Virus record (IMG/VR): IMGVR_UViG_3300046791_000298
Location: 12,830-76,829 of that record
Source: a virus
Length of the DNA: 64,000 nucleotides
Reading direction: 5' to 3' (one strand)
Positions 29,753 to 59,072 of this stretch are shown one piece after another. The position numbers were made by a program, and so were the translations under genes. The notes under the pieces were generated by a model. That model did not search any database. It was not told the origin of the DNA and was given only the letters and a program-made list of their open reading frames with translations. Every line of letters begins with the position of its first letter. Within the stretch, counting starts at the first letter, position 1.

Positions 29753-30832
29753 TTAACCTATTAGTCTATTAAGTAGTACCCATCTATTAAGATTATTTGC
29801 TGTATCATATTGGAATTGCATTACCATTCTTTGACCTTTCTTAATTTGCATGGGCAGCATAATAGGCAATAACCCTGCACTACCACCCTGCGTTCCCCCT
29901 GTAGCGGCTGCTAGATAAAATGCAGTGTACCCGAATGTCGCATCCACCCACGTTATATTTTGTGTTGCAGCAGTAGCAACTATACATATATCCAAATACT
30001 GTCCATCATTAGCCGTACCGGATGTTATCTTAAAATTGGCAGCCGTTGCCTGAGCTGTTAGTTTATATATATTATCTGTAAGCGCATTCGGTTGCGGGGT
30101 ATTTGTACTCCCAGTTGCCGCAACAACTGGACTTATAAGATTATTAGTTCCGACTGAACCTTGTGACCCCTGTGATCCAAGAGTCCCCATAGTTCCTTGT
30201 GTCCCCTGTGCGCCTGTAGGACCTGTAGGACCAGGCACCGTTGAAGCAGAACCAATACTTCCTTGCGTGCCTTGTGTTCCCTGCGGACCAGTAGGGCCAC
30301 TCACTGTTGATGCTGAGCCAATACTACCCTGAGTCCCTTGAGCACCTTGAGCACCCGTAGCACCAGTTGGGCCTAAACTTCCTTGCGTACCCTGAGTACC
30401 TTGCACCCCCTGGATTCCAATTGATCCCTGCGTTCCTTGTGGACCAGTAGGACCCGTAGGACCTGTAACAGTTGACGCTGACCCCTGGCTGCCCTGCGTA
30501 CCCTGAGCACCAGTGGCGCCTGTAGGACCAAGACTACCCTGTGTCCCCTGTGTGCCTTGTGGCCCGGTTGGCCCACTTACAGTAGACGCAGAACCCTGAC
30601 TTCCTTGAGACCCCCTAGTGCCCTGTATCCCCTGTGATCCAGTCGCTCCAGTTGGACCTAGTGGTCCTTGTATTCCAATTGAACCTTGAGTCCCCTGTGG
30701 TCCTGTAGGACCCGATACTGTCGAGGCCGATCCTTGACTGCCCTGGGTTCCGTGTGTCCCTTGAGGGCCAGTAGGACCAGTATGTCCGGTTCCTCCGGTT
30801 GGGCCAAGTACTATGATGGGAGTAGCAATCAT
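29753..30832 (-). CDS. collagen-like (Gly-X-Y) fibre protein, Thr/Ser/Gln-rich
   Basis: About 220 aa of GPT/GPQ/GTQ/GSQ triplets with recurring GSASTV interruptions; C-terminal globular domain. Confidence 0.9.
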   Translation of the reverse strand: MIATPIIVLGPTGGTGHTGPTGPQGTHGTQGSQGSASTVSGPTGPQGTQGSIGIQGPLGPTGATGSQGIQGTRGSQGSQGSASTVSGPTGPQGTQGTQGSLGPTGATGAQGTQGSQGSASTVTGPTGPTGPQGTQGSIGIQGVQGTQGTQGSLGPTGATGAQGAQGTQGSIGSASTVSGPTGPQGTQGTQGSIGSASTVPGPTGPTGAQGTQGTMGTLGSQGSQGSVGTNNLISPVVAATGSTNTPQPNALTDNIYKLTAQATAANFKITSGTANDGQYLDICIVATAATQNITWVDATFGYTAFYLAAATGGTQGGSAGLLPIMLPMQIKKGQRMVMQFQYDTANNLNRWVLLNRLIG

Positions 30833-31445: not shown

Positions 31446-34400
31446 TTAAGTTTTTAAGCACGCCACCAATTTACTTATTTTTTTGCGCACACCCATGAGG
31501 GTATCGTGGGCACTCCCAGCATTGATTTCCTCATGGATATATTTTAAAGAAGGGACCGATACAGATACAGTGGTTTCCCTAGCTTCTGGGGATAGAATTT
31601 GATTCTCTGAAATTTCTTGAGTTAGTCCCTCAGAGCCGCCTTGTTGAGGCTTTCCAGCATTCGTTTGCTGCGTGCTCTCATTGACTGCCTGGTTGGAGAC
31701 GTTGGACGTTGATACAGTTTTTGTTTCTCCAGTGGAAGCTGGTCGTACTCCTTCTGCGTAATCGCGTCTTTTGATGGTGAGTCCTTCGTACTGAGATTTT
31801 GTGATTTTTCCTTCATTATATAGCTTTTCTGTGATTCCTGTGAGCTTTTTCTCCAGTTCTTTAGCAGTATAAGGAATTTCAGGGATTTTAGCAATTCTTA
31901 CCTCCTTTGCATTCCCAGCCCCCCTGCTATTATCAATAACGGTAAAATGGACTTTACTGTTACCTTTATATTGCCTCATTAACTGATCAATATTTACCCG
32001 GGAACCGATATGAGTTTGGGCATGTATAAAAATAGGAACCGTCCGCCCGAAACCGTCAGATTTTTTATCCAACATTCTTTTGATAACACCGTTTTCAAAG
32101 GCTTCAACTGGATCACGATATGTGTATCGGATATCGATATCTTTAACTCCAGCATTAAGAGCTTTATCAATTTTCTCTTTAGCGGTTTCAAAATGATCAA
32201 GATTGCCGTCATAAATAAAACGAACACTGTTTGGATCCTCACCCTCTAAGGAAACAGTCTTACCTGAACCAGTTCCTCCACTTGTAAATATTCCAGTATT
32301 CTCTTCGCCCTTTAAGAACCACTCAGCATCAAGTTTCTCCTGGTATAATTTTCTTATAAAGGCCGCGGCAGGTTCGTGTACTGCGGATGATAACGCGCGA
32401 TTATCCTCATAATCCTTTGAAAGTTCGCGTGCATTATCGGCATTCAGGACATTGCCAAATTTCTCTTTATAGGTCTTCTTGGCCTCCCCAAAATTCTCAT
32501 TCAAGTACTTACCGAACTTAGTTTCAACTGCTTTTTGCTCTGGAGAAAGTGATGGTTCTGGAGTATATGGGACAGGTTGCTTTTCTTTCAGCTTGTAAGC
32601 AAATGCCTTTTCTCCGTTGGCCAGAGTGATTTCCTCGCGTTGATATTTATTTTCATATTTATCTAGCTTCTCTAATTGCTGAGGGCTCAATTCCATAACC
32701 TGGCCAGGGACCTTATCTTCTCCTGATTCAAGTGTGGTATAACCATCTCCAACATCCTTCACCTTGCCGGTTGTTTCCGCGGATGTAGTTGTCACATCTT
32801 CTCCTAATGCTTGTTTCCTTGTCTCCGCATCTTTTAGTGTTCCATAAACGAATACCTTTTTTACTCCTTCTTTGACCACCGGCTCTTTGGCCGTTTCTTT
32901 TTCTCCTTCGAGATTCGCTTGGGCAGTTTCTTTCCCTTCGACGCCTGGTTCCACTCGTCCACGTTTACTCCCTGGGACTCCAGCTTCTCCCTGTTCGCGT
33001 TGAAGTAACCCCTCTGTGCTTGGCTTTTGTAAGGCATTTTGTATCCCCTCCTCGGATTTTATTTGTTCAGAGTTATCTACACTTTGTTGAATAGCCTCGG
33101 CTGATTTATCAAGAGCATTGATATCGTTCGGATCAACATTTTTTTGTTCTTCTTTAATAACAGTAGTTGCATTCTTTCCAAGGTCCCCAGCTGGAACCGA
33201 TAAATTATTTTCATTGAATTCAGAAATAGCTGTAACTGATCCGAAGACTGCTCCAGGAGCGAACCCCTGCATCCCTGCATTGAATGCACGCTGATGATTA
33301 ACATTAGCCATTGCCTCTGTAAGAGTCATGCCATTTGCTAGTAATGCTCCAACCTGTTGATCAACGTCCTGTAAATATTCAGTTGCAAATTCTCCACCTC
33401 CGGCTATTCCGATATCTTTCAGCGCTCCTTTAACACCAAATTTTACAACCTGTTCAAGTACTTGTTTTTTTGCTGATTTTAGAAAGACTTGTTTTATGGC
33501 TTTCCCTGCTCCTGCTAAAAAACCAAGACCCTCAAGCCCCATACTGATTAGACCGACAGTGTTGGCGATATTTTCATCCGATTGATTCTCTTCTTTCGTC
33601 TGAATCTTTTCAAGACTTATCGGTGTGATCTCTGTTCCAAATTTTTCGCTTAAGTTTTGCGCCTTCTTTGCTCGAATTTCATCAAGAGCATCGTAACGCT
33701 CCATCTTAAATAGAATAACTGGAGATGTGGCAAACCCAATTGAACTAGCAACTCCTTGCCCAACACTTCCTTCTAACCATTTCTCGAAATCTTTAGCCGA
33801 TTTGATCGAAGTAAAATCTTGAGGTATGCCTTTTAAGTTTTCTTGTCCTTGTGTCTGATTGGCAACAATTTTTTCTTTCTCAAAGGTATCTCTGGTCTTT
33901 TGGATCAATCGGTTTACTTCGTCTTTGTAAAATCCCATCACTCTTTCAGGAGAGGTATTTGATGATTTCGAGGCGCGAAGTAAAATATTGTATGTATCCT
34001 TTGCTGCTCTATTTTGATTAGGATGAAGTTGCGTACCGGGTTCTTGTGCGGCTCTTTCTTTGTATTCAGCCAATAGGTCTTTTAATGGAGTTGACTTAAT
34101 CTTCTCCATTGTCAGAATCCCTGTCTCTTCAGCATCGGTTGGTCCCTGGTCCGCCTTCTTCAATAACTCCTCATAATTTGTAGGCATACTTTTTAAAGCC
34201 TCACGATGGATAACTAGGGGAGTCGCAGTTGTAAAAAAATTAACAAATGATCTTACTAGAGCATCTCCAATCCCTGTTGGGTTTAATGGATTATAGCCTG
34301 TATGGAGTTCCCCTCCCGTATTCTTTTCGGAAGGCTTTGGCGAAGGCTCTTGAACCACTGATGATACCCCTGTAGAAACGACCGGCTTTTGTGCGGTGAA

Positions 34401-34568
34401 ACCATCTGAGGATTTTTGGTCTTCTGTAGTAGGCTCTTTTTTTTTTACTTGGTTGAGTTGCCGAAGGATTGGATCCTCTTCCTCGGACGTAGTCTGTTCC
34501 TCAACCTTTTTTTTTGGCTTCGATCCGTTTAATTTCTTGAGAATGGGGTCATCTATCTCTTCTGCCAT
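31446..34568 (-). CDS. polyvalent internal virion protein with GGCT and zeta-toxin-like kinase domains
   Basis: VFVYGTL...LDKYE (GGCT/AIG2-like, ~32590-32860); FTSGGTGSGKT...IYDGN...GRTVP (zeta-like, ~31900-32300). Confidence 0.75.
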   Translation of the reverse strand: MAEEIDDPILKKLNGSKPKKKVEEQTTSEEEDPILRQLNQVKKKEPTTEDQKSSDGFTAQKPVVSTGVSSVVQEPSPKPSEKNTGGELHTGYNPLNPTGIGDALVRSFVNFFTTATPLVIHREALKSMPTNYEELLKKADQGPTDAEETGILTMEKIKSTPLKDLLAEYKERAAQEPGTQLHPNQNRAAKDTYNILLRASKSSNTSPERVMGFYKDEVNRLIQKTRDTFEKEKIVANQTQGQENLKGIPQDFTSIKSAKDFEKWLEGSVGQGVASSIGFATSPVILFKMERYDALDEIRAKKAQNLSEKFGTEITPISLEKIQTKEENQSDENIANTVGLISMGLEGLGFLAGAGKAIKQVFLKSAKKQVLEQVVKFGVKGALKDIGIAGGGEFATEYLQDVDQQVGALLANGMTLTEAMANVNHQRAFNAGMQGFAPGAVFGSVTAISEFNENNLSVPAGDLGKNATTVIKEEQKNVDPNDINALDKSAEAIQQSVDNSEQIKSEEGIQNALQKPSTEGLLQREQGEAGVPGSKRGRVEPGVEGKETAQANLEGEKETAKEPVVKEGVKKVFVYGTLKDAETRKQALGEDVTTTSAETTGKVKDVGDGYTTLESGEDKVPGQVMELSPQQLEKLDKYENKYQREEITLANGEKAFAYKLKEKQPVPYTPEPSLSPEQKAVETKFGKYLNENFGEAKKTYKEKFGNVLNADNARELSKDYEDNRALSSAVHEPAAAFIRKLYQEKLDAEWFLKGEENTGIFTSGGTGSGKTVSLEGEDPNSVRFIYDGNLDHFETAKEKIDKALNAGVKDIDIRYTYRDPVEAFENGVIKRMLDKKSDGFGRTVPIFIHAQTHIGSRVNIDQLMRQYKGNSKVHFTVIDNSRGAGNAKEVRIAKIPEIPYTAKELEKKLTGITEKLYNEGKITKSQYEGLTIKRRDYAEGVRPASTGETKTVSTSNVSNQAVNESTQQTNAGKPQQGGSEGLTQEISENQILSPEARETTVSVSVPSLKYIHEEINAGSAHDTLMGVRKKISKLVACLKT

Positions 34569-36987: not shown

Positions 36988-39900
36988 TTAAGTTTTAACC
37001 GTTTTCTCACTTAGGGTATAATATAGCGCTAGCCAATTGAAAACAGATAAATAAGTCACTGCTGGATTAAGTTTTAACCGAACTAGTAATGCTTTACTTC
37101 GCATAACATCACCATTAATTTTCGCATCGTCTCCCGTTTTATTAGCAGTATTTACATCTCGCATGATATCAGCCCAAAACATATCTTCCTTGTCAGTCAG
37201 ATCATCTAGATTGATGTATGTTCCCTGGATAGTTGCTCCATTACTTTTCCAATCTCCTTTAATTGAGGGCAAAGACCATTTATCGGAAGCAATATGCCCT
37301 TGTGCCTGCCATACTTTCTTTTTTCTGAAACTAGGATTTGCAATCAATTCAATTTCACAATCTTTTTTCACTCCATAGAAAGTGCTGAAATTATCCTCAT
37401 CGGCTTCATGAATATGAATTTTACCTGTTGTCATTGAATAAACCTCATTATCAAGCGATTCGAATCCTTCTGCCGCAAAATCAAAAAATTCCTTCCAACG
37501 TGGTCCCGTCGGAGTTTCTTCATGGAATGATATGCATTTATAAACAGAATACCCTTTAAAGGTTCCAGGTAAATCAACATGATCCAGGTACATTAACCAT
37601 CTATCGTGATAATTATCCCAAGTTGAAATAATTTTAACTGGAGTATCGGATGCTGCATTGATGCCCGCAATTATTATCGATAAATCCTTGAACCAGTTTT
37701 TCATTTTATATTTACTGCTGATCTCAGTCAATCCGTCCTGGGCATAACGAATCCATGAGCCTGCTTTTTGATCCCAATAAATCAATCGACCTCTTTCTAA
37801 GCTAATACTCTCCGGGTTTAATGTCCCATGACTCCCTAAAAGTGTATTGAATGAACCTAGAACACGATCGCTCAGTGCGATTTGTTGCCTTCCGGATAAG
37901 TCTTCAAGGACAGTCCTGTTAACATAAATACTCCAGGTTTCAGATTCACCAATAGCAAGCAGGATGTTACCAACCGATTCAACTTGCGCATGGGATATAT
38001 TTACAAGGGCTCGTATTCTACCGTATTCAGCAGGGTATATAAATTGATCTCTATCATTAAATCTATTAATTTGATTAACGAAAGAGTCTTGAACCAATTT
38101 CCCCCCAAACCTAGCCTGTGTTTGTATAAATGTCGCTTCTGGCAGATCAAGATATGCGATTGAAGGTCGTCCGTTATTCTTTTCCCAGAACTCGTATGTC
38201 TTTTCAACATCAGGATTCATTGAAGTAGCAACCCCCGTGCTGATAATTGATAAATCCCGAAAAATTATTTTTTGGATAGAAAAACAATCCCCATAAAACA
38301 ATGGCATTTTATTGAAGATATCAAATGGACCCTGTTGTGATAATTCAACGGAGGTATTATCGATATAAACCCAATCTCTTTTACTGAAATCACGACTTGC
38401 TGTGCCGGGGAATAAAATAGGGTACCATTCTCCGCATTCGTGAAATATAAAATTATTATCATCCGGGATTTCATTCGGAGTATATACCTCCATGTCATAT
38501 TTTGAACCCCATACAGCACCGTCACCAGTAGGGAGACTTAATAGGGTGCTTGGTTTTTCTACGATAATGCCAGCCCCAGTGAATTCTAATATTTCAAGAT
38601 CATATATTCTAAGGTCAGCCGAGGATGCCGGGGAAGCTAACTCACTACCCCAAAACCTTACTCGATCTCCTTCACGAAAATTATAAAATAGTTTAGCGAG
38701 CGGCTTATTTTTAGTGGATGATTGCCTGGCCGCATTGTACCAGTTATTGATATCAATGTATATTCTGCTTGCATTAGTTACAGCGATTGAAGTAGATGTG
38801 CTAACACGGATTTCTGGCCCAATCTTAAATCTCATTTTATTGAAATCCAGATAACCAGCTTTCGATTTATCTCTGAATAAATTAATACTGATTTGATCTG
38901 TCTTGCTAAGGATTTCACTTGTGCCAAGTTTTGCTTTCTCAATCTCCTGAGCTACTTGATAGCCATCAACGATATTTGAATTCTCAAAATGTTGAGCAAG
39001 TTTGTCTTTTATAGCCTGTGGCAAAGAAGTTGCCCCAATTAAAGTAGATGCCGAATCGAGTAAGGGCACAAATTTATTAGCAATCCCCCTCATGAAGGAG
39101 TTGATATTAATAACATTGCTTCTCACTATCTGAAAGCAGGTTGCCCACTCTGGGGGTACTACTGAATCTGGTATTTTAAAAGTGAGAGCATGTAAACGAA
39201 ACTGACTTGTCACCGGCAATTCGTAAATCCAATTATCAGTAGTATAGGTTAGGCTTCTCCATCCAGTATGATCACCATAAATGATACCACCTTTGTAAAG
39301 CCCTCTATCCTTAAAATTAAATTGGCTAAGCGCATTTAACTTCAATAATTTTTCTCTTGGTGTAGGATCAAATTGAGGGAAAGAACTACTCGGATCAGCA
39401 TCATTCCAGTCTGCGCCTGGATCAATTACACTTCCAACATCTTCAACAGCGAAATCAGTAACAGGCTCATGTTCATTTAAACAATCACCAAAAACAAATC
39501 TGTTATCAATTGCCTCAACAGTGCCAGCTAAAAAGGGGACGCTATCGAACTGCTCATTAAATTCAGCACTAGGGATAATCCTACCGTCAACTGATCCATC
39601 AAAATAATGGTATGGCTCGAATACTCCACCGCTTTCGTAAATACGTTTCCATAGTCTCCATGGACTTCTTTCTCCTTCACGATAAGCTAGTTCAATATAC
39701 TCTACAGCTTCAGTGAATTTTATACTATCATGACCAAAATAATTGTATTCCGCCAGCGTGCCAGGAACATCTAAGATGCTTCCACGGACCTCAACTTCAA
39801 TTGCAGTTATAACTTTGTTAGCATAATAATTTGTGAATACACTATTCACATCTTCAACGTATGCAGCCTTACTCACTGGCCCCCATCTTGATTTCAGTTT

Positions 39901-40563
39901 GCCTTTATAAACATATTTGTGGGTAAACTGAAAGACCTTATTCGAGAGCTTCTCCCAATTATTAATCGATCCGTCATAATAAATTCTTGGTATCGAAGGA
40001 GCAGTTGGAGCCCATTTAACGAAAGAGATATGAAATTCTCTAAGATTACTACCTAATGTAAATGCGGTTTGGTAAATAGTATTGACGTCAACCAGTCTGG
40101 GAGCATTTATACGATCAGTAAAAGCCAGCCAGTTGTTGATTAGGGCGGCCTTTATAAAAGTGCCGAAGTTAAGTATACTATTTTCAACTAAAAGATAGGT
40201 TGTACGTTCTGCTTTAACATACATCTCAATGCGATCGGTGGTGTCTTCCCAGAAGATAAATACTCGCCCATTAGCAACATCTTTAAGTTTCCCCCTCTCA
40301 ATACCAGAGGATGGATATGTTGCGCTAACCCAGGCGGATCCGTTCCAAGATTTATAGAGAGTAACTTGAGTAGTCCCCGCAACAGTCTCACTCCCTCCTG
40401 TATTGTTTTCAATACTGGAGCCATTATTCATGTTGCGCATATATGTGTAATCACCTAACTCAAAAAGGCTACGTCCTTCAGCCCCGAGCGGGGGTGAAAG
40501 AGGGCTGTCATCATGGTTCAGCCCGCCACGAGGCGATAGTAAGACTTCTGTTAATTCTGGCAT
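36988..40563 (-). CDS. tail nozzle/muzzle (stabilisation) protein
   Basis: 1191 aa, N-terminal GGLNHDD, HG.LNPES beta-propeller-like C-terminal part; follows ring proteins. Confidence 0.65.
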   Translation of the reverse strand: MPELTEVLLSPRGGLNHDDSPLSPPLGAEGRSLFELGDYTYMRNMNNGSSIENNTGGSETVAGTTQVTLYKSWNGSAWVSATYPSSGIERGKLKDVANGRVFIFWEDTTDRIEMYVKAERTTYLLVENSILNFGTFIKAALINNWLAFTDRINAPRLVDVNTIYQTAFTLGSNLREFHISFVKWAPTAPSIPRIYYDGSINNWEKLSNKVFQFTHKYVYKGKLKSRWGPVSKAAYVEDVNSVFTNYYANKVITAIEVEVRGSILDVPGTLAEYNYFGHDSIKFTEAVEYIELAYREGERSPWRLWKRIYESGGVFEPYHYFDGSVDGRIIPSAEFNEQFDSVPFLAGTVEAIDNRFVFGDCLNEHEPVTDFAVEDVGSVIDPGADWNDADPSSSFPQFDPTPREKLLKLNALSQFNFKDRGLYKGGIIYGDHTGWRSLTYTTDNWIYELPVTSQFRLHALTFKIPDSVVPPEWATCFQIVRSNVININSFMRGIANKFVPLLDSASTLIGATSLPQAIKDKLAQHFENSNIVDGYQVAQEIEKAKLGTSEILSKTDQISINLFRDKSKAGYLDFNKMRFKIGPEIRVSTSTSIAVTNASRIYIDINNWYNAARQSSTKNKPLAKLFYNFREGDRVRFWGSELASPASSADLRIYDLEILEFTGAGIIVEKPSTLLSLPTGDGAVWGSKYDMEVYTPNEIPDDNNFIFHECGEWYPILFPGTASRDFSKRDWVYIDNTSVELSQQGPFDIFNKMPLFYGDCFSIQKIIFRDLSIISTGVATSMNPDVEKTYEFWEKNNGRPSIAYLDLPEATFIQTQARFGGKLVQDSFVNQINRFNDRDQFIYPAEYGRIRALVNISHAQVESVGNILLAIGESETWSIYVNRTVLEDLSGRQQIALSDRVLGSFNTLLGSHGTLNPESISLERGRLIYWDQKAGSWIRYAQDGLTEISSKYKMKNWFKDLSIIIAGINAASDTPVKIISTWDNYHDRWLMYLDHVDLPGTFKGYSVYKCISFHEETPTGPRWKEFFDFAAEGFESLDNEVYSMTTGKIHIHEADEDNFSTFYGVKKDCEIELIANPSFRKKKVWQAQGHIASDKWSLPSIKGDWKSNGATIQGTYINLDDLTDKEDMFWADIMRDVNTANKTGDDAKINGDVMRSKALLVRLKLNPAVTYLSVFNWLALYYTLSEKTVKT

Positions 40564-43418: not shown

Positions 43419-44969
43419 CTAAACTCCTACAGGCTTTCTGTCTGTATAACTCTGAATATTTGTACAATCAGTAATTGTTCCATTGAATGTATTTATTGTT
43501 CTCCCTCCACTAGCATCTATTCTTGTAAAAGAAGCTAATAAGTTACAATTATTATTGCCATTATTTGGCATTAAAATGTTGGCTTTCGTGCTTGCATGAG
43601 AGGAGGTGAAAAGCACTATTGATCCTGTCCTTGATTTAAAGCAACTGAAAGATGCCGTAATTGTGTAGGTAACAGATTCTTTAAAATTCACAGTTATTGC
43701 CGTTGTTACTACACAAGTAACAGTTGCGGCTGTGAACCCAGATGAACCAGCAAAAGTCGTTGTTGCTCCATTACCAATAGTTAAAGTAGCCGAAATAGAT
43801 AACAATGAATTAATTGTATATGTTTTCCCTGTCGTATTTGTCAATGTTACATTGTTCCAAGTTATACCATTGGTATTCAGAGTGCAGGTTCCTAAAAGTG
43901 AAAGTGTTGAAGATGTGGTCGTAATCGTTCCGCTGGTGTAAGTCAGTGTGCCGGTATTGTACAGAACAGTACCGCTAATTGTAATAGCCCCCCCAACTAA
44001 AGTTAGGTTATTTGAAACGCCACCTCCTCCCCCAGTATCAGACCATGTTCCTGAATCCAGTTCAATATCCGCAGTCCCAGTCATATTGACACCACAGGTA
44101 ATCCCATTGCAAAATACTTTTTCACTTGCTGTTTTGTTAATAACAAGACCAGTAGTACCAACAACGAAAGATGACAATGTTGCACCAACATGCAAATCTT
44201 CTGTTAATGTAATGGATGCAGATAAATTTTGACCACCTTCAATATTATTAAAGGTGACAGCATTTGCTTTGATTGTAACCGAACCATTAATTGTCATTTT
44301 TCCAGTAACCGTAACCGTCCCTGAAACGTACTCCATCAAGGCTCCTCCATACACCGTATCCCCGATAGAACTATTACCATCAAGATATAATGTCGTAGTT
44401 AAACTTCCTGTCCATGTTCCACCCTTTAAATACACTAAAGCAGAGCCACTCAAACCTTCAATTAACGGCAATCCACTTACATTTAATTTCTCTGCCGTTG
44501 TTTTATTTACCGCATTCGTACCCGTTCCTGCTGATGTAGAGAATGTCCCGCTAACGGTAAAATCACCGACAAGCGTAATTGTTTTATTAACATTGCCGAG
44601 TAGGTTTATATTATTCGGCCATGTTTTACCACCACTTGTAACCGTACCTGTTGCTGTAAGAACTATCCTTGAGCTTCCCGCAATAGTAAACCCAGTGTGC
44701 ATCGTCCAATTACCGCCTATCCGGAGTTCAGCATTATGAGTTATGGTTTGCGTGTACCCTGCCGTAATGTTCAAAGAGAGTACATCAGATATTGCATTGA
44801 CGGTAGCATTAGAATTTCCCAATACGCCACCACCATCAAATGTAACATCATCCGTAGAAACTGGTACAGAGGCATTGCCTACACCACCGGAAGTTGCAGA
44901 CCAATTAGTTGGCACTGTTGCATTCCAGTTTGCTGATGACCCGCCTCCAACCCAAAATCTAGCTGCCAT
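43419..44969 (-). CDS. Thr/Gly-rich beta-helical fibre/spike protein (paralogue B)
   Basis: Starts MAARFWVGGG; internal repeats (NKTTAE, GGTWTG); C-terminal FTRIDASGGR. Confidence 0.75.
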   Translation of the reverse strand: MAARFWVGGGSSANWNATVPTNWSATSGGVGNASVPVSTDDVTFDGGGVLGNSNATVNAISDVLSLNITAGYTQTITHNAELRIGGNWTMHTGFTIAGSSRIVLTATGTVTSGGKTWPNNINLLGNVNKTITLVGDFTVSGTFSTSAGTGTNAVNKTTAEKLNVSGLPLIEGLSGSALVYLKGGTWTGSLTTTLYLDGNSSIGDTVYGGALMEYVSGTVTVTGKMTINGSVTIKANAVTFNNIEGGQNLSASITLTEDLHVGATLSSFVVGTTGLVINKTASEKVFCNGITCGVNMTGTADIELDSGTWSDTGGGGGVSNNLTLVGGAITISGTVLYNTGTLTYTSGTITTTSSTLSLLGTCTLNTNGITWNNVTLTNTTGKTYTINSLLSISATLTIGNGATTTFAGSSGFTAATVTCVVTTAITVNFKESVTYTITASFSCFKSRTGSIVLFTSSHASTKANILMPNNGNNNCNLLASFTRIDASGGRTINTFNGTITDCTNIQSYTDRKPVGV

Positions 44970-45147
44970 TTACTTCTTCAGTTTTAATTTCTTCCTTTTT
45001 CACTTCAGGTTTAAATCTGACTTTACCTTTACATCCACGCACTCCACAATTTATTATAATCCCTTTTTCGGTTTTGATATTCGCTTTGAATAAAAACTTT
45101 GGTGGTATAATTCTATGATGTGCCGTATCGCAAAATAAATGTTTCAT
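44959..45147 (-). CDS. small Cys-containing protein
   Basis: FCDTAHH...NCGVRGC; lies between the two fibre paralogues. Confidence 0.55.
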   Translation of the reverse strand: MKHLFCDTAHHRIIPPKFLFKANIKTEKGIIINCGVRGCKGKVRFKPEVKKEEIKTEEVNGS

Positions 45148-45150
45148 AGT

Positions 45151-47100
45151 TTAATTCGCTACTGTTAATAAATCATGGAATTCTTGAATATTAATACAAT
45201 CCGTTATAGTTCCATTAAAAGTTCTGATAGGTCTTCCTCCACTCGCATCGATACGAGTAAAATTTGCAAGTACATTGCACGCTGCTCCATTTTGTAAAGT
45301 TAAAATTGTTTTTGTTGTGGCATGTGCTGAAATAAAAGTTAATGAAGCCCCATTACTGGAAGTGCTGCAATTAAAATAAGATGTTACAGTATATGTTATA
45401 GATTCTTTCAGAGTAACTGCGGCCGTAGTAACATGACTCGATACTAATGTCCCAACCGTCCAACCCGCACTTCCTGTAAAGGTTGTTGGATTTATTTGCA
45501 AATTTAAAGTTGTAGAACTCAATAAAGAATTAATAGTTATCGTTAAGACAGAAGATGAATTAGCCATGTTCACAGTCTCCCAACTCATCCCATTTGTACT
45601 AAGTGTACAATCGGATGTTAATAATAAAATTGATGAGGTAACTGTGATGGTGCCTGAATTATAAGTAAGCGTACCAGTTTTATATTGAACAGTCCCACTT
45701 ATGGTTACATTGCCTTGTAGAAATGTATTATTACTTAACCCAGTAACACTCCCACCTGTCCATGTTCCACCAGTTAAATAAAAATCAGCAGTTCCTTGGG
45801 TTGCTGATGTCACGGTGATCCCTCCACTTATTGTAACAGTTTCGGCTGTTGTCTTATTAATAGTAACACCAGCTCCAGCATTTAATAATAATAATCCAGA
45901 AATTGTCAAATTAGATGTTAAGGTCATATTAACCTGTCCACCAGAAGTCGAACAACTAAAATTGTTCCAGGTTATTCCATTAGTATTAAATACTGTTGAT
46001 GCGGCAGAAATGACCCTTATAGTTGAGCCAGTTGTAGTGATTGTGCCACTAATATATGTTATGGTTTTTTCTCCAAAATTTACTGTTCCCGAAATAGTAA
46101 CGTTTCCCTGTAAATCTAAATCGGTTTGAATTTGACTTGGAGAACCTCCAGACCATGTTCCACCAGTTAAAATTATCTTAACTGTGCCTGATATATTAGC
46201 ACTTACAGTAATCCCGCCAGATAAAGTTAATGTCTCTGCTGCAGTAGGGGTTAAGGTTGTTGTAGAGGAAATGGTAAGAAGACCGGAAATCGTAAAATTA
46301 CCACTTAGCGTCTTGGTGCTGGATAGCGACCAAGTCATTGCATTAGGCCAAGTCTTCCCTCCACTCGTTATCGTTGAAGTAGCATTAATAGTAATAGAAC
46401 TCGATCCTGCTATTGTATAAGAGGTATTTAAAGTAAGATTACCAGAAATAGTAAGCGCCGCATTGTGAGTCATAGTCTGTGTATATCCGGACGTAATGGT
46501 TAAGGAAAGTACATTAATGGTAGCTGATATTGTGCTATTACTATTTCCACTAGCACCTGCACCATCGAATGTTACATCATCAGTTGAAGTTGGTACAGAG
46601 GCATTGCCAGCCCCTCCAGAAGTACCAGACCAATTAGTATTTGATGTTGCATTCCAGTTAGCATTACTTCCACCACCTACCCAAAATCTCGAAGCATTAT
46701 GAACAATTAATCCATCAGCAATGTAAACATGATCACCATCAACCCTTATCAACCACCAAGTTTCATCAGGTGAAGTTTCTTCTATAGAAGTTATAACTAC
46801 TTCCTGCCTATCTTCATCATAGATAATATCTCCAATCTGTAATAATTTGGCATGAGTAATCCCACTTTGCTTGGTAGGTATTGATTGGTTTTTAAATAAT
46901 TTGTATGTACCGTTAATTAAATAAAAAATGAACTCACCATGATGCTCCTTAAAATCGGGATCTGTTTTGGGTGAGAGTCTCTCCTTACTGATTAAAAAGT
47001 TTGAAATAGTAATCCCTGTATCTTCATCGTAGGCAAGAAGTTCATCACCAACAAAGATATCTTCAATATTTTTATAGCCGTAAGGAGTACGTAGACGCAT
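45151..47100 (-). CDS. fibre/spike protein (paralogue A) with N-terminal Hint domain
   Basis: aa 1-135 Hint-like (TPYGYKNIEDIFVGD...HVYIADGLIVHN), then ASRFWVGGG fibre domain. Confidence 0.85.
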   Translation of the reverse strand: MRLRTPYGYKNIEDIFVGDELLAYDEDTGITISNFLISKERLSPKTDPDFKEHHGEFIFYLINGTYKLFKNQSIPTKQSGITHAKLLQIGDIIYDEDRQEVVITSIEETSPDETWWLIRVDGDHVYIADGLIVHNASRFWVGGGSNANWNATSNTNWSGTSGGAGNASVPTSTDDVTFDGAGASGNSNSTISATINVLSLTITSGYTQTMTHNAALTISGNLTLNTSYTIAGSSSITINATSTITSGGKTWPNAMTWSLSSTKTLSGNFTISGLLTISSTTTLTPTAAETLTLSGGITVSANISGTVKIILTGGTWSGGSPSQIQTDLDLQGNVTISGTVNFGEKTITYISGTITTTGSTIRVISAASTVFNTNGITWNNFSCSTSGGQVNMTLTSNLTISGLLLLNAGAGVTINKTTAETVTISGGITVTSATQGTADFYLTGGTWTGGSVTGLSNNTFLQGNVTISGTVQYKTGTLTYNSGTITVTSSILLLTSDCTLSTNGMSWETVNMANSSSVLTITINSLLSSTTLNLQINPTTFTGSAGWTVGTLVSSHVTTAAVTLKESITYTVTSYFNCSTSSNGASLTFISAHATTKTILTLQNGAACNVLANFTRIDASGGRPIRTFNGTITDCINIQEFHDLLTVAN

Positions 47101-47101
47101 T

Positions 47102-47479
47102 TTACCACTCTATCGCTTTTGTATCATCCCCTGGCAAAACACCAGCAAAATTATCAAAAGTAATTCCTGACGTTGGTCCCGATGTTCCCAATTCACTATC
47201 AGCTAGTTCATTATTCACATCAAGAACAGGAGTTGCGGTAGTATATTCATTCAACAGAAATTCACAAATAGCTTTCTGTGAACCAAAATTACTACCCTGG
47301 GAAAGTATCTGCTTCGCATAACGCTTTCTCTTTTGAAGTCTGGCGTTATAATCTACTAGTGCCGCTGGGGTAGTATTAGTATGGTATGTTGCAAGAGATT
47401 TAAAACCCATCCACACTCTTTGTTGGAAGGTTTCCTTTGCGGCCATGACCGCTTTTTCAGAATATGTTAGTGCTGCCAT
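47102..47479 (-). CDS. putative virion protein
   Basis: 125 aa in the fibre cluster. Confidence 0.55.
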   Translation of the reverse strand: MAALTYSEKAVMAAKETFQQRVWMGFKSLATYHTNTTPAALVDYNARLQKRKRYAKQILSQGSNFGSQKAICEFLLNEYTTATPVLDVNNELADSELGTSGPTSGITFDNFAGVLPGDDTKAIEW

Positions 47480-47499: not shown

Positions 47500-49989
47500 T
47501 TATGAGTACAAGTCAAATGTTATGTAGGTAGCTCCAGTATTAGTCAAAACGCTGATCTCAAAAATATCATCAGCAGCAAATGAAGTTGTCCAGCCTGACA
47601 ATGAAGTAGACTTCACCGCATTACCAGTTGTTAAATCTGGAGGATCGGATGCTACTATCGATGAAGAAGGGAGGGCTGTACCTGTGGCAATTTTTTTAAT
47701 TTCCAATGTCAGATTAGGGCTTGTTCCTGCCGCAATAATCGACCATGCTGATATTGTTCCTCCTGATTTGGCACGTATATATGTTTTAGTGCCTACTAAT
47801 ACAATTCCGCCCTGACCATCAAATTTTGCTGGGCCCGTTCCAACAGAACTAATTACACTCTCAATTTTATCGTATACTGCATTCTTTGAAGGTGCAATTG
47901 TTGTGACTCCATCCCATGATGAACCATAAGCTGTATTGTCTGCTGATTCAACAATCTTCCATGTGCCATCTCCGCACCAAAATGTCGTTGCTGATGCTAA
48001 CGTACCGGAATTTAAATGTGAGACATCAAGGTTACCGGTAACCCCATTACTTAAATCAACTTGTGACCATTCTGGATTATTAGAAGATCCACTATTGCTT
48101 AAATATCGCGTAGCACTTGTATTTTTAGGAAGTGCCACAATATTATCTGTAGCATCTGAATATAAAATATCTCCCTGGGTTACGGTCGATAACCCTATTC
48201 CTCCTCTAACAACTGATAATGTTCCACTCCATCCAACCGCAATTGAGGCGGCAGTTAATAAAGCTGTAGTGGGGCCTCCTCCTAAAGTGAGGGTTACATT
48301 CGTATCATCAGATTTAGTGAGTGCAGCACCATTCCCAGATCCTCCCAACAATGCAATTGTTCCTGATACATCTGGGGCTGTTAATGTGCGGGTAGTGCCT
48401 CCAGCTATTGCAGATGCCTGGAATTTTAAAATTTTTGTAGGGTCAACATTATCAAGAATAGAAAGATTATTATCTAAGAATGAATGTGTCCCTGTCCATG
48501 CTTTATTAAGAGATGCACTGACTGTAAAGACGGTGCCTGTTCCAGAGACAACAATGTCTCCATAGTTACCATCCGAAACACCTGCCGAAGAGACTGCCCA
48601 TGTAGGAACACCGGCGGCAAGAGTTAGTACATATCCATTAGTTGTCGCAACTAATTTTGTTAATGTTGTAGTTGTATTGGCATACAACATATCTCCAACG
48701 GAAAATACACTGAACCCAGTTCCTCCATTATCAGCATCCAAAGTACCGGCCATGGTAATGGTACCGGTTGTTGTAATTGGCCCTCCTGAAAAAGTTAATC
48801 CGGTGGATCCTCCAGCAACTTGAACTGATGTAACTGTTCCTCCACTGCCTGGTGTTTGCCATAATGGAAATCCTCCTATCATTGTAAGGACCTGTCCAGG
48901 TGTACCCGCACTTAAAGAAATTGCTGTTCCGGAACCATTCCCATAAATAAGAGAGCCAGCACCAATAGCGGTCGATATTTTATTATTAAGTTGAGTCTGC
49001 GCATTAGACAAAAGTCCGATTGTATATTCAAGATGAGTGGTTGTTAAACCCAACCCATTTGTTCCTAGTAAAACATTTATATCGGCAGCGCTGGGAGTAA
49101 TATCCGAGACATCAGCGATAGTTAAAGTTTTCCAATCTGAATCGTATGGCGACCCAGATACTTTATATAAGAATTGATTCGTCGTACCTCCAGCGGGTAG
49201 ACCGGTTATAATCGGATCAGTTAAATTCCATTCTCCATTAGCAAAATCCCATGTTAAAGCGAATCCATCTTCTGTTATAGTTGGATTTTTTGCTAGTGCA
49301 CTTGCTGGGATGCCAAGGATATTATTATTCAATTGTGATTGAACGTTGCTTGTTAAGGTTGATAAGAAATTTCCTTGAGTCATGGTGGTGGTGAGCGAAA
49401 CTAACTGCCCATTACCATCTGATCCAATTAATCTTGAGGCCGTCAACCCTGCGTTCTCTCCCATAACGCCTAATGAATTATTTGCTAAAATTCGGTAAGC
49501 TGTACCGCTTGCAAGTTTTGATCTTGCTATTGCGGCATTGCTCAGGATATGAGTATTAGAAATTACAGAACTCTTAATAGCAAGTCCTCCGCCAACGGTT
49601 CCAGCTATATCTCCAAGCGTAGAGGTATTAACTGCCTGTGCGGTACCATTTCCAATGAATATAAACCCAGCAGCAAGAGAACTTGAGAGTTTATTATTGA
49701 ATGTATTCCAATCCGTTGAACTTAAATATCCAGATTGAGATGTGGTTGCTTGTTTAACCTGGATGGAGGCATTACTTAATAATGATGCTGATCCTCCTGT
49801 AATTGTAAGGACTGAGGATGTCGCCTCGGTAAGATTACCTCCAGCGGAAACGCGGCTTGCTGGCACAGACGAAGTTTGAGTAACAAGTCCTGTTGTCGAA
49901 TTACGCATCAGGAATGCGTCAGTACCTCCTCCGGTTGCCGGGAGAAAATCAAGCGCTAATCCATTTACTACTCTAAATTCGTTTGCCAT
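47500..49989 (-). CDS. tail fibre protein
   Basis: T/S/G-rich; GYLSSTDWNTFNNK, GTVTSV and GDMLYA fibre motifs. Confidence 0.8.
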   Translation of the reverse strand: MANEFRVVNGLALDFLPATGGGTDAFLMRNSTTGLVTQTSSVPASRVSAGGNLTEATSSVLTITGGSASLLSNASIQVKQATTSQSGYLSSTDWNTFNNKLSSSLAAGFIFIGNGTAQAVNTSTLGDIAGTVGGGLAIKSSVISNTHILSNAAIARSKLASGTAYRILANNSLGVMGENAGLTASRLIGSDGNGQLVSLTTTMTQGNFLSTLTSNVQSQLNNNILGIPASALAKNPTITEDGFALTWDFANGEWNLTDPIITGLPAGGTTNQFLYKVSGSPYDSDWKTLTIADVSDITPSAADINVLLGTNGLGLTTTHLEYTIGLLSNAQTQLNNKISTAIGAGSLIYGNGSGTAISLSAGTPGQVLTMIGGFPLWQTPGSGGTVTSVQVAGGSTGLTFSGGPITTTGTITMAGTLDADNGGTGFSVFSVGDMLYANTTTTLTKLVATTNGYVLTLAAGVPTWAVSSAGVSDGNYGDIVVSGTGTVFTVSASLNKAWTGTHSFLDNNLSILDNVDPTKILKFQASAIAGGTTRTLTAPDVSGTIALLGGSGNGAALTKSDDTNVTLTLGGGPTTALLTAASIAVGWSGTLSVVRGGIGLSTVTQGDILYSDATDNIVALPKNTSATRYLSNSGSSNNPEWSQVDLSNGVTGNLDVSHLNSGTLASATTFWCGDGTWKIVESADNTAYGSSWDGVTTIAPSKNAVYDKIESVISSVGTGPAKFDGQGGIVLVGTKTYIRAKSGGTISAWSIIAAGTSPNLTLEIKKIATGTALPSSSIVASDPPDLTTGNAVKSTSLSGWTTSFAADDIFEISVLTNTGATYITFDLYS

Positions 49990-49990
49990 A

Positions 49991-51406
49991 TTAATGAGTC
50001 CAGAATTCTACATCACTTATAACATACGTTGCTGCAGTAAACCCAAACAATTTTATATCTCCATTTGTTTCAGCAAAGAAAGCAATAGAGGCATCAACTA
50101 CATTAGATTGAGTTTGTTGTGTTGGTCTATAACCAGCAGGCAAATTAGCGAAGATAGCGTTAGTAGCATCGGTGCCATCAACATCCCCACGGAAATGAAC
50201 CGCTCCCAATGAATCTTTAAAGTATTGAGGTGTTACCGACCCAGAAACCCACCCATTGATTAATGTAATATCTATCCATGCTTCTTGTGGAATTGCTATT
50301 AATTGTTCGTATCTCACAGCATCCCCGTTATTGGTTGCAGCGGCAAGACCCGTAACTTTATTTCCCCCCATGGCGATACTACCGGACATTGTCCCGCCAA
50401 TGAGTTGGAGGAAAACACCAATGACTTGTTCATAACGAAGCGAATCTCCGTTGCCAGTGCCCACTCCTAATCCTGTTATTTTATTCCCACCAGCTGGAAG
50501 ATTACCATTCATAGGGATTGACCCATCACGAGAAAGTTTTTCACCAAGTGCGGCAACCAGACCAATTACTTCTGCCATAAGAACATCAGCAAATTGGGCA
50601 TCGAAATCATTAGACGATGATTTCCTTAAATATTGCCCTACAGTCCCGCCTGCTGGAAGAGGTCCCTGTGCATTCTGAAAAGATACATTCTCAAATGAAA
50701 TCCTCGATCCCCTTACTACCCATCCATTTGTGGGTACGTTACAGGTTAATTCTAAATTTCCACCAACGATTGCGGCAGAAAAATTAACTGCATCACCAAC
50801 GGTTCCTCCAACATCATTCCCTCTATAGTTTGTTATCACTGGGTCTGACGAGCCCCTCCAGTTTATCCCAAGGATATCCAGGCGTGAACCTTCACCAGTA
50901 CCAGTACCTCGAATATTGATTATGTAAAAAGCGTATTCGCTTGATGAGGCATCGAGTGAATCAACAACCTCTCCTGGAGACTGTACATTTATATTTTGAA
51001 ATGTTACTCCGCCAGGGACCGCAGGACCACCAGTTACAGGGGCTCCAGTACTGCCAGCTGTCGAAGGGAAGAATGCTAATGGTATCCGCTTACCGGTGAG
51101 TAAAGGGATTGCGGCTCCTCCGTAGAATTGACTGAGCCGAGCAATAGCATCGAGTAATTTATTAAACTTCTGCTCATTAGCTGGATCCTCATAGTAAGCA
51201 ATAACCTCACCGTCATCATCAAGAATATTTTGCAGATAAATCCGTAACAGTATCAGCCGATACATATCATCCCGATAGGCTGTGTCCCCCTGATCTTGTC
51301 CGCGCTTACTACGCCTGACTAATGAGAGACCTATATCGGCAATTGCATGCTGACCACGGTTAATGATCAATGAAATTTCTTCTGCGCTTTTTATTGGAGC
51401 ACTCAT
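49991..51406 (-). CDS. tail fibre/baseplate-proximal protein
   Basis: MGGNKVTGLAA and LPAGYRP fibre motifs. Confidence 0.7.
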   Translation of the reverse strand: MSAPIKSAEEISLIINRGQHAIADIGLSLVRRSKRGQDQGDTAYRDDMYRLILLRIYLQNILDDDGEVIAYYEDPANEQKFNKLLDAIARLSQFYGGAAIPLLTGKRIPLAFFPSTAGSTGAPVTGGPAVPGGVTFQNINVQSPGEVVDSLDASSSEYAFYIINIRGTGTGEGSRLDILGINWRGSSDPVITNYRGNDVGGTVGDAVNFSAAIVGGNLELTCNVPTNGWVVRGSRISFENVSFQNAQGPLPAGGTVGQYLRKSSSNDFDAQFADVLMAEVIGLVAALGEKLSRDGSIPMNGNLPAGGNKITGLGVGTGNGDSLRYEQVIGVFLQLIGGTMSGSIAMGGNKVTGLAAATNNGDAVRYEQLIAIPQEAWIDITLINGWVSGSVTPQYFKDSLGAVHFRGDVDGTDATNAIFANLPAGYRPTQQTQSNVVDASIAFFAETNGDIKLFGFTAATYVISDVEFWTH

Positions 51407-56726: not shown

Positions 56727-59072
56727 TTATTTAGCCTTCGCGGTTGCTGGCTTCTTCTTGGCTGAGATTAGTGCAGCTTCTGATTTCATTTTATCCGGAA
56801 TATTCCTAAGAGCCTGCTTCATGATATCATCCATACCTTTCTGTTTCTGTACAGTCTCCTTCATTTCCTTATCAAGCGACTTTAAAATACCGTCCTGCTC
56901 TGATTTTTCTTTTTGCAAATTAGATTGGATTTGACCCTCCAGTACTGCCAATTCCTTCTTTTTCTGTGATTCAAACTCAATAGCCTGCTGAGCCGCCTGA
57001 GCTGTCTGGGCCGCGGATTGCTGATTGGCCATCATGTTTGCTTGGATATCCATCTGCTTCTCCTTCAGCGCCTCACGTTTGAACGCGGCCTCCCTGGCAA
57101 TCATAACCTGGCGGGCCTGCTTCAGGTTGTCAATTTCTCGCAAGTACATGGAGTCAGAAAGCCCAATTTTACCTGCAATTAAAGCCTCACGAACATCCTG
57201 ATAGAAGTCTGCCCATTCCTGCGGTCCGGGTTGACGGCTCATTGTGAATCCATATTCGGTATAGGCTAGTTCCTTCGGAGCCTCGACTGTTCTTCCGAGT
57301 GCTGGTACAAATCCTCTGATGTTTCCACCTCTTCTTTTTGTCTCCTGGGATAGTAATAATAATTGGTGAGAAGCGCGCTCGTACAGATATTCATGAGCAT
57401 TATACAAGTATTCCATATCCAGGTCGCCAGTTTGCTGGCTGGCCTTCATCACTGATACAGCTAAACGATTTTGAACATCGGCAGATTCTACAAGAGTAGT
57501 GCCGGTCATGGCTTCAAGCATCTGCAGGCTGACCTGAATTGTATTGAAATAATCGGCCATCTCAATTCCTGATTGGTGGAATTTGACAGCGTCACCAATT
57601 TTTTGCTCATATTGATTTACAGCGCCCCTGGAGGCCACAGTTTGGGTCATTTCCATAAATTCAAAAGCCTCTCTTGCACTCCAAACATTACCGCCTTTAC
57701 CAAGTGCTACTTTCTCAAATGCACTGAAATCTATTTCCCTAACACCAGTCCACCCGCGTGCAAGATCCCCCTTTACCTTATTCCACATAGCATTGATCAT
57801 AAACAGAGGTTCCAGCATTTGTGATGCGAAACTCACTGGGCGGCCATTCTTGAAGTTGGTTGCAAAAGTTTTTATCGGTAGGCTATTGTCAACAAGATTT
57901 GTGCGCGGATATGGTTTTCTTCCGAAATTATAAACAACATCACTATCAATAATCCAGGTTCCTCCGTAAACGCTCGTGTAAGAAGGATCAAGTAGTTTCG
58001 AATCTCCTCCTTTGCTGAATCTCTCAAGATTTTCCTGTGGATAATAGTTGTATGGTTTATCGATCAGTATTTTACTTCCAAATTGATTTTTCCTGGTTAC
58101 ATACTTGCGCTGATCTTCTGAGAGGAAGTAATAACGCATTACAGGAATGTAATCCATATTGTCGAAGGCTCCCACTGGATGGCGGAATGAATTAACTGAA
58201 TAGGACCCGTTGCGAATCCGGTAACGTGAAGCAAGTTCCTCCAATTCATTTTGCTTGTAGAACTGACCGGCTTCTTTGATCAGTTGATTTACTGTGATGC
58301 ATTCAATGAATAATGAATACTCCTGATCCTCAAAATCATCGTTATCGACAAAACTACCGCCCCAATATTTCGGGTTAATCCGGTCAATACGTGGTAGCCA
58401 GTTTGCATCGTGGTATGTATGAAGGTGTCCAAATCCAGTTACTACCATATCCCAGTCCACCTGACGCATCTTCTGTTTGAAGCGATTCATCGATTGAACT
58501 AGTCTCAGGGTAAGTTCCCCTTCAATTTCCTTCTGTAGTTTCGGATTGGCGTTTATTTCCTGAATGAGTTCGTCTGGATATTCTGGCAGGCCTGATACAT
58601 CAATTCCTTCAAAAGCAGCCTGCAGAGGAATTCCCATAGTATTAACCCAGTTTTTTAGCCGGTAAACAGCTTGGATAACTCCTTTCCAATCTTCTTTCTC
58701 ATCGATCGAACCAAGGTCAATCGCCTCCAGTGAGATATCATAACCGATGCGTTGCATCTTAGCAACGGCTCTGTTGATGTATTTAGGGGCAAGGTTTAAT
58801 ATTTTTGGATCAATGAAAGCGAGCGACTCGGGTCCGTCTCCACCTCTCCCGCCTTGGCGATGGAAGCCAAATAATTTTCGTAACGGTTCTACAGATTGAT
58901 TCCCCTGGGCGAGTTCAATGAGTGAGTCAAAATAATCGTCTTCGTAAAAGACCTTGGAACCGTAGCGGTTATCAGCGTAATACATCGCTTTTGCCGCTTG
59001 TAATTGATATTCTGCCGTTTCCTTGTCCTTGGGGTTGCAGAACTCCGGAGGGAAATTGTAGCCGTCAGCCAT
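56727..59072 (-). CDS. portal protein
   Basis: 781 aa right after TerL; NLAPKYIN; Q/A-rich coiled-coil C-terminus. Confidence 0.8.
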   Translation of the reverse strand: MADGYNFPPEFCNPKDKETAEYQLQAAKAMYYADNRYGSKVFYEDDYFDSLIELAQGNQSVEPLRKLFGFHRQGGRGGDGPESLAFIDPKILNLAPKYINRAVAKMQRIGYDISLEAIDLGSIDEKEDWKGVIQAVYRLKNWVNTMGIPLQAAFEGIDVSGLPEYPDELIQEINANPKLQKEIEGELTLRLVQSMNRFKQKMRQVDWDMVVTGFGHLHTYHDANWLPRIDRINPKYWGGSFVDNDDFEDQEYSLFIECITVNQLIKEAGQFYKQNELEELASRYRIRNGSYSVNSFRHPVGAFDNMDYIPVMRYYFLSEDQRKYVTRKNQFGSKILIDKPYNYYPQENLERFSKGGDSKLLDPSYTSVYGGTWIIDSDVVYNFGRKPYPRTNLVDNSLPIKTFATNFKNGRPVSFASQMLEPLFMINAMWNKVKGDLARGWTGVREIDFSAFEKVALGKGGNVWSAREAFEFMEMTQTVASRGAVNQYEQKIGDAVKFHQSGIEMADYFNTIQVSLQMLEAMTGTTLVESADVQNRLAVSVMKASQQTGDLDMEYLYNAHEYLYERASHQLLLLSQETKRRGGNIRGFVPALGRTVEAPKELAYTEYGFTMSRQPGPQEWADFYQDVREALIAGKIGLSDSMYLREIDNLKQARQVMIAREAAFKREALKEKQMDIQANMMANQQSAAQTAQAAQQAIEFESQKKKELAVLEGQIQSNLQKEKSEQDGILKSLDKEMKETVQKQKGMDDIMKQALRNIPDKMKSEAALISAKKKPATAKAK

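Follow-up and report, generated by a model that had tools for sequence, protein, structure and literature searches.

A predicted cleavage-only Hint domain at the N-terminus of a phage fibre-like protein and its widespread family

The window analysed here is a stretch of 64,000 nucleotides covering positions 12,830 to 76,829 of the IMG/VR virus record IMGVR_UViG_3300046791_000298, a complete 76,829-bp record with direct terminal repeats. An open reading frame (ORF) of this window, ORF 45151-47100(-), encodes a putative fibre precursor that begins with a Hint-like domain and continues as a beta-helix. Structure prediction and comparison of its relatives indicate that residues 1-135 are probably a cleavage-only Hint autoprocessing domain of a distinct and widespread subfamily, which would be removed from the precursor by asparagine cyclisation after Asn135.

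The Hint domain and the beta-helix body of the precursor

The AlphaFold2 (AF2) model of the Hint domain, for which 42 homologues were in the alignment, has a pLDDT (predicted local distance difference test) of 94.3. A Foldseek search of the PDB with this model listed 38 matches at E≤1e-3, all of them inteins or bacterial intein-like domains (BILs), led by the C. thermocellum BIL 2lwy (E 6e-7, TM 0.75), the gp41-1 intein and the Tetrahymena BIL2 6y75. VIA-align, an independent all-against-representatives structure search, gave the NpuDnaB and gp41-1 inteins as best matches (Z 16.3, root-mean-square deviation 1.8 A over 115-121 residues) and Z scores of 13-16 against about 20 inteins, BILs and Hedgehog 1at0. 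In these models residues 1-135 adopt a Hint fold. An earlier sequence-only reading of this DNA had proposed a 135-aa N-terminal Hint domain and a Foldseek comparison with Hint families; the model bears out the domain, and the matches listed are all Hint domains. Support from sequence profiles is thin. The model TIGR01443 (intein_Cterm) scores above its cut-off on the Hint domain (17.8 vs 15.6), and PT-HINT (PF07591) aligns to the domain alone from end to end (positions 3-136 of 137) at 21.1 bits, below its cut-off of 27.7. Several homologues have a precomputed PF07591 match. The closest PDB sequence is the gp41-1 intein, which also aligns end to end (E 0.035).

The N-terminal part of the intein active site is missing from this domain, and with it all that thioester formation and trans-esterification require. 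Residue 1 of the model pairs with chain residue 6 in most intein chains listed by VIA-align, and the gp41-1 sequence alignment agrees, so the whole first strand (intein residues 1-5) is gone. The lack of Cys1 noted in the sequence-only reading therefore holds, and the loss is larger than was claimed there. An in-frame TAG lies four codons upstream of the ATG with no start codon in between, thus Met1 is the sole possible start and an N-extein is absent, in line with the same reading. Fusion of the upstream 125-aa gene by frameshift or read-through was considered and rejected, because of this TAG, because that gene would not supply a nucleophile, and because the spacing varies among relatives. 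The absence of the block-B TxxH was also correctly read, although its counterpart, placed at F69-K-N-Q72 from the sequence, is G64-T-Y-K67 by the gp41-1 alignment and contains no His. The block-F Asp position is occupied by Leu. Residues 134-136 are His-Asn-Ala, as had been read. With N-extein, Cys1, block-B His and a +1 nucleophile all absent, splicing is excluded, as the earlier reading expected.

The full-length AF2 model is all-beta, with a pLDDT of 94.1 and a pTM (predicted TM-score) of 0.87. Every match listed for the whole model by Foldseek at E≤1e-3 is a Hint domain, and the body was placed by VIA-align only. Residues 344-644 resemble right-handed beta-helix polysaccharide lyases and phage tailspikes with middling scores (Z 10-12), which are compatible with a fibre or tailspike and not proof of one. 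The 514-aa body has no match in Pfam, PHROG or NCBIfam, the queries P0001-P0003 have no match in PHROGs, and a Peptidase S74 domain was not found by Pfam at E≤1 in P0001 or P0003. The precursor gene lies between fibre-like genes and the gene of a crAss muzzle-like protein. On the basis of the beta-helix fold and this position in the virion module, the precursor and its Hint-less paralogue may be alternative receptor-binding proteins.

Family conservation and the shared mature N-terminus

A word-indexed search with the whole protein returned 656 matches, and an exhaustive HMMER search with the Hint domain alone returned 354 clusters (50% identity) at E≤1e-3, including 148 at E≤1e-10. The cluster members listed carried no informative names. 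The domain is no peculiarity of one phage; it belongs to a widespread family with hundreds of uncultured phages as carriers, which extends to a position after the membrane anchor in envelope proteins of the Candidate Phyla Radiation (CPR). More distant matches (e.g. P0222, P0241 and P0242) are ordinary tandem BIL/PT-HINT domains that start with C-[FL]-x-A-G-T, indicating that the Cys-less clade is derived and distinct.

A hidden Markov model built from the domain places His-Asn at 217 of 218 aligned domain ends. Conservation was counted over 192 non-redundant Hint domains of the family. G8, N63, H134 and N135 are present in all of them, N34 in 191, G90 and R138 in 190, T5 in 188, H83 in 183 and Q72 in 182. 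The +1 residue A136 is present in 181, the remainder having Pro, Phe or Leu, and the block-F His (H124) in 161. The block-B His position (67) is never conserved (Lys in 60, Thr in 40, Arg in 17 and Asn in 14), and the block-F Asp position (117) is mostly Arg (141) or Lys (30). In this pattern, the active-site half for the N-terminal junction is decayed, and the strictest conservation in the domain falls on the half for Asn cyclisation.

Length variation is concentrated in one loop. An insert of 12-77 aa follows the residue-49 position, in the loop preceding block B, in 77 of the 192 domains, and the carriers (P0030, P0007, P0133, P0019 and others) have Hint domains of up to 210 aa. Several of these inserts contain acidic repeats of the D-E-D/E-G-N type. 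A homing endonuclease in the longer variants was rejected, as the inserts do not exceed 77 aa and are located before block B.

The chain of ORF 45151-47100(-) past N135 is ASRFWVGGGSNANWNAT, and the N-terminus of the paralogue encoded by 43419-44969(-), 180 bp downstream of the Hint-fibre gene, is M-AARFWVGGGSSANWNAT. In BLASTP, A136 of the precursor pairs with A2 of the paralogue and the alignment is colinear to both C-termini (50% identity, E 1e-119), so the exact register described in the sequence-only reading is upheld. The likeness is greatest over the first ~120 and last ~50 residues; the predicted mature fibre is conserved over its first ~120 and last ~50 aa and variable in the middle.

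The N-terminal architecture was classified in 228 relatives. The Hint domain stands directly at Met1 (M-x-[ILV]-L-T-P-x-G-Y…) in 160, follows a signal peptide with the same Hint start in 19 and follows a long N-terminal extension in 7; another 4, probable fragments, have a Hint domain whose start was not resolved. Proteins from CPR and Negativicutes carry a signal or transmembrane anchor and a linker ahead of the domain. In the extended forms the residues preceding x-I-L-T-P are unconserved and lack Cys. The Hint domain always directly adjoins the beta-helix start A-S-R-[FY]-W-V-G-G. Among the Hint-less relatives, 26 start with M-A-x-R-[FY]-W, and 12 have a signal peptide that ends just before A-x-R-[FY]-W (for example …C-F-G / A-A-R-Y-W). 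The survey of homologues suggested by the sequence-only reading thus found Hint-bearing and Hint-less forms with the same A-x-R-[FY]-W start at the junction. M-A-x-[RK] is in exact register in 23 of the 26 Met-type proteins, and this register of the mature N-terminus is typical, not absolute. Three Hint-less proteins (P0042, P0104 and P0087) begin with M-A-R-Y-W or M-D-R-Y-W and are one residue shorter or have a Met that would stay in place.

Judged from these sequences, Met removal, signal peptidase and the Hint junction would be three routes that converge on Ala-x-Arg-[FY]-Trp. This convergence of three processing routes on one N-terminus is the strongest argument for Hint removal at N135/A136. 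The second is that the junction co-varies with the Hint domain: A-S-R follows the junction in 159 of 190 Hint proteins and in 3 of 38 Hint-less ones, and A-A-R in 1 of 190 and 21 of 38, respectively, which gives the junction the look of a substrate. For the removal at N135/A136 predicted by the sequence-only reading, the comparative data are strongly in favour (His-Asn in 192 of 192 domains and the same N-terminus in Hint-less relatives), with the cleavage event itself deduced from them.

The same data bear on a reading in which the Hint domain is retained uncleaved as an adaptor through which the fibre docks to the tail or a partner, with the paralogue docking elsewhere. Phage receptor-binding proteins are usually anchored to the virion by their N-terminal domains (for example PMC12692247), and the pTM of the full-length model is consistent with a fixed arrangement of Hint and helix. 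However, a retained adaptor leaves the invariant His-Asn of the 192 domains unexplained while block B and the block-F Asp vary, the domain is also found past membrane anchors in CPR envelope proteins, where there is no virion, and the Hint-less relatives begin exactly at the junction. We consider a retained adaptor quite unlikely.

Carriers, locus and candidate partner genes

The strict junction pattern was found in 13 IMG/VR contigs, which range from AT-rich to clearly GC-rich as judged from ORF patterns. One of them is a 170-kb contig with adjacent tail sheath and tube genes (myovirus-type; L004). Among 185,579 prokaryotes (one genome per species), the pattern was found at eight loci, of which five are from CPR (Staskawiczbacteria, Saccharibacteria and Paceibacterota), one from a Negativicutes metagenome-assembled genome (MAG), one from a Sterolibacterium MAG and one from a Bradyrhizobium chromosome region (L022). 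The Sterolibacterium contig is identical to a viral contig. In the Bradyrhizobium region a virion protein and an endolysin flank the Hint-fibre, and the region is prophage-like and high in GC. The CPR Hint proteins reach more than 1,900 aa, and in them the Hint domain is preceded by a signal or anchor at the N-terminus and a linker. One CPR locus is seemingly situated among UvrA- and GroEL-like genes (from N-terminal ORF sequences only), which suggests a cellular context.

Two of the prokaryotic loci, L016 and L017, lie at both ends of the 661,750-bp Staskawiczbacteria contig JAHFKV010000001.1. They encode giant paralogues of 1,800 aa and at least 1,921 aa, each with a signal or anchor, Hint domain and beta-helix, which would be neighbours on a circular genome, should the contig represent one. 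In a Saccharibacteria MAG, a Hint ORF of 206 aa (L019:5821-6441) ends ~20 residues past the junction and is followed by a separate 514-aa ORF (L019:6559-8103). The two may be a frameshifted or split copy.

No match was obtained when the whole protein (P0001), the Hint domain alone and the Bradyrhizobium homologue were searched with tblastn against 50,697 deposited phage genomes, which probably explains why the literature searched is silent on this family. In viral scans with the signal-peptide forms P0103 and P0063, which may be phage or cellular proteins, all relatives obtained were Hint-less or partial. A Cys-less N-terminal Hint domain on a fibre was not described in the literature searched, and such absence is not proof; a mention of 'Hint' for phage phiCbK proved to be a TerL intein. 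Databases hold uncharacterised 'Hint domain containing' phage proteins, some with FN3/collagen repeats or GpJ-like tail domains, thus a Hint domain on a phage structural protein is not new as such.

In the window, the precursor gene is part of a structural module on the minus strand (Table 1). The PF25729 match of the 36988-40563(-) product places the phage near Crassvirales-type podoviruses. The 125-aa product of 47102-47479(-) has no family match. Between the two fibre genes, a 62-aa ORF (44959-45147(-)) overlaps the start of the paralogue gene by 11 nt. Its product is Lys-rich and Cys/His-rich (C6, H10-H11, C34, C39) with no PHROG match; the ORF may be spurious or may encode a small zinc-binding protein. 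The gene 31446-34568(-), located downstream of that for the muzzle-like protein, has a 1,040-aa product that combines a gamma-glutamyl cyclotransferase domain of the GGACT/AIG2-like type (E 3.6e-14) with a zeta-toxin-like match below threshold (21.8 vs 22.3 bits).

Table 1. Features of the precursor locus and the structural module (positions in the window)
Feature	Position	Strand	Basis or remark
Large terminase	59078-61297	minus	structural module
Portal protein	56727-59072	minus	structural module
Fibre-like genes	49991-51406 and 47500-49989	minus	structural module
829-aa fibre-like virion protein	47500-49989	minus	C-terminal domain matches phrog_10330, weak, E 0.00089
125-aa gene upstream of Hint ORF	47102-47479	minus	TAA stop, one base, then Hint ATG
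Precursor gene, 649 aa: N-terminal Hint and right-handed beta-helix body, fibre- or tailspike-like	45151-47100	minus	ORF, AF2, VIA-align
Hint domain, aa 1-135, without intein residues 1-5 (including Cys1) and block-B His	46696-47100	minus	
Predicted scissile junction His134-Asn135/Ala136, codons CAT AAT GCT	46693-46701	minus	sequence; His134-Asn135 codons at 46696-46701
Predicted mature fibre, aa 136-649, start A-S-R-F-W-V-G-G-G	45151-46695	minus	
Hint-less paralogue, 516 aa, start M-A-A-R-F-W-V-G-G-G, same register	43419-44969	minus	
crAss muzzle C-terminal domain protein, 1,191 aa	36988-40563	minus	PF25729, 28.3 vs 27 bits
Collagen-like fibre gene	29753-30832	minus	structural module

Proteins with a phrog_10330 ('virion structural protein') C-terminal domain are encoded upstream of the Hint-fibre in two loci, by 47500-49989(-) and by L022:4210-5994. 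The latter match is strong (E 1.7e-16) and its gene directly adjoins the Hint-fibre gene; in the crAss-like phage the 125-aa gene intervenes between the two. The phrog_10330-type protein and the Hint-fibre may be a conserved partner pair.

Such a partner could give the missing first strand a function. The Hint domain would be latent until a partner virion protein, for which the upstream protein with the phrog_10330-type C-terminal domain is the candidate, inserts a strand into the vacant groove. Docking would then be linked to cleavage, or even to covalent ligation via the Ala amine set free, and the result would be an assembly checkpoint derived from an intein fragment. We regard such latency as very improbable. 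Still less credit, hardly any, is given to a split-intein-like module that behaves as an intein C-fragment and to which a partner would supply the first strand in trans on docking, so triggering cleavage or a BIL-type aminolysis that ligates the fibre to the partner. The missing part is exactly the first five intein residues, and in engineered inteins split after a very short N-piece, C-cleavage is triggered by the peptide. The upstream phrog_10330-matching protein occurs in two unrelated loci, with a weak match at 47500-49989, and ligation by type A BILs is possible in the absence of a +1 nucleophile (PMC4031507). However, the residues before the domain are unconserved in relatives, with no fixed Cys, Ser or Thr, the upstream 125-aa protein has a C-terminus (…K-A-I-E-W) that is free of Cys, and the block-B His and block-F Asp that are needed for thioester chemistry are gone.

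Predicted mechanism, role and relation to known systems

Returning to the preferred reading, self-cleavage by the Hint domain on its own, the precursor would fold and the side chain of Asn135 would attack its own peptide carbonyl to form a succinimide. The N135-A136 bond would break without cofactors, aided by His134 and usually His124. The ~15-kDa Hint fragment ending in succinimide would be discarded, and the ~52-kDa beta-helix fibre would begin at Ala136. Under this reading splicing or ligation is not possible. The Hint domain would work in the cytoplasm in phages and past Sec export in the signal-peptide and CPR forms, and its reaction is therefore expected to need no cofactor. Type A BILs also keep the His-Asn, have no +1 nucleophile and mainly cleave, and Asn cyclisation is separable from the other splicing steps and needs no +1 nucleophile (PMC4031507).

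Several observations weigh against this reading. The protein of ORF 45151-47100(-) falls short of the Pfam PT-HINT cut-off, its full 649 aa scoring 16.8 bits against the PF07591 gathering threshold of 27.7. In 28 of the 192 domains, Ser, Arg or Ala stands in place of His124. Engineered intein fragments that lack the first strand often show little activity until they are complemented. A Ser at +2 was rejected as a Hint requirement: its raw association with the domain is strong, but on just five phylogenetically independent pairs the test is underpowered and the association not significant (4-5 of 5 in the same direction, p about 0.125). The cleavage is itself deduced from sequence comparison. 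Finally, the Hint domain is dispensable, as this phage also has a Hint-less paralogue, and on a tree of the fibres, built from the first 230 residues past the junction, the domain must have been gained or lost at least 14 times (shuffled mean 35), with 6 of these changes forced by well-supported branches. A chaperone or cap role can therefore not be obligatory.

Given cleavage, we tentatively favour, and hold only weakly, a role in which the Hint domain transiently caps the beta-helix at its N-terminal end or nucleates its folding. The domain would be the first part of the chain to leave the ribosome or Sec pore, and its removal would follow helix formation. An intramolecular chaperone, a timer and an environmental switch, all put forward in the sequence-only reading, are further candidate roles. 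This role is preferred because the Hint domain is fused directly to the first beta-helix rung, because it would emerge first in synthesis or export, and because it is kept even where signal peptidase would already make the N-terminus.

The data fit almost as well a tolerated selfish or neutral element, that is, an intein-derived passenger at the 5' end of fibre genes that removes itself cleanly and brings the phage no benefit. Such a passenger would persist because clean deletion is rare, and would spread via recombination of the conserved fibre 5' module. The domain is optional, the Hint-less paralogues and relatives share the mature N-terminus, the tree shows the repeated changes in Hint presence given above, and the module occurs in unrelated phage types (crAss-like, the sheath/tube-gene contig and the high-GC prophage-like region). 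The invariance of His-Asn is equally expected of a passenger, since failed cleavage would cripple the host protein. On the other hand, no homing endonuclease was seen; the sole common insert is too small for one and is located outside the stretch from block B to block F, the usual endonuclease site of inteins. The domain is also kept between the signal peptide or anchor and the helix in cellular proteins, where signal peptidase alone would suffice to make the N-terminus, and the family has specific invariant non-catalytic residues (N34, N63, Q72 and H83). On balance a mere passenger is unlikely.

Among known systems, type A BILs (Amitai 2003; Dassa 2004; 2lwy) share the Hint fold, the terminal His-Asn and the lack of a +1 nucleophile, occur in surface or variable proteins, and cleave more than they splice (PMC4031507). 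Unlike the fibre-Hint family, they have a Cys start and an N-extein, can form a thioester and sometimes ligate; the fibre-Hint family lacks Cys1, the first strand and the block-B His and is usually located at residue 1. The mini-inteins gp41-1 (cyanophage-like; 6qaz/6riz) and NpuDnaB (4o1r) are closest in sequence and structure and have the same C-terminal His-Asn chemistry. However, they interrupt a host protein, start with Cys or Ser, are followed by Cys, Ser or Thr and have their flanks ligated, none of which is true here. Engineered C-terminal-cleaving tags are Cys1Ala mini-inteins that serve as self-removing N-terminal purification tags. Like the fibre Hint, they are N-terminal Hint domains with a dead N-terminal site and an expected release of the downstream protein by Asn cyclisation, but they were made artificially by point mutation and still have the first strand; the fibre Hint would be a natural, evolved counterpart without it.

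Pretoxin HINT (PF07591) is the closest Pfam model, and autoproteolytic release of a downstream module has been proposed for it (PMC3482391). PT-HINT domains start with C-[FL]-x-A-G-T and precede C-terminal toxins in polymorphic toxins, whereas the fibre Hint is below the cut-off, has no such Cys and is followed by a beta-helix fibre. The Peptidase S74 chaperones (K1F endosialidase; PMC3357383) are also self-cleaving accessory domains absent from the mature fibre or tailspike, as would be the case here, although they are C-terminal, have an unrelated fold and use a Ser-Lys dyad instead of an Asn lyase. The BIL-A/intein-type asparagine-lyase chemistry is thus already known, and what is new is the architecture and its context.

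Collectively, these results describe a Hint subfamily reduced to the C-terminal half-reaction that is real, widespread and apparently undescribed. If cleavage takes place as predicted, phage receptor-binding proteins would have a maturation step of a new kind, in which an asparagine lyase serves as a natural N-terminal pro-domain, both in phages of very different types and in giant CPR envelope proteins. The subfamily would mark an end-point of Hint evolution, with the C-terminal half-reaction as its sole remnant, and would define which residues suffice for Asn cyclisation when the first strand, block B and the block-F Asp are lacking. For biotechnology, it would provide a cofactor-free and naturally optimised self-removing tag for N-termini that is compact (123-140 aa) and leaves behind only Ala-Ser. 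Fibre N-termini and adaptor-domain predictions in metagenomic phages would then have to be re-read.

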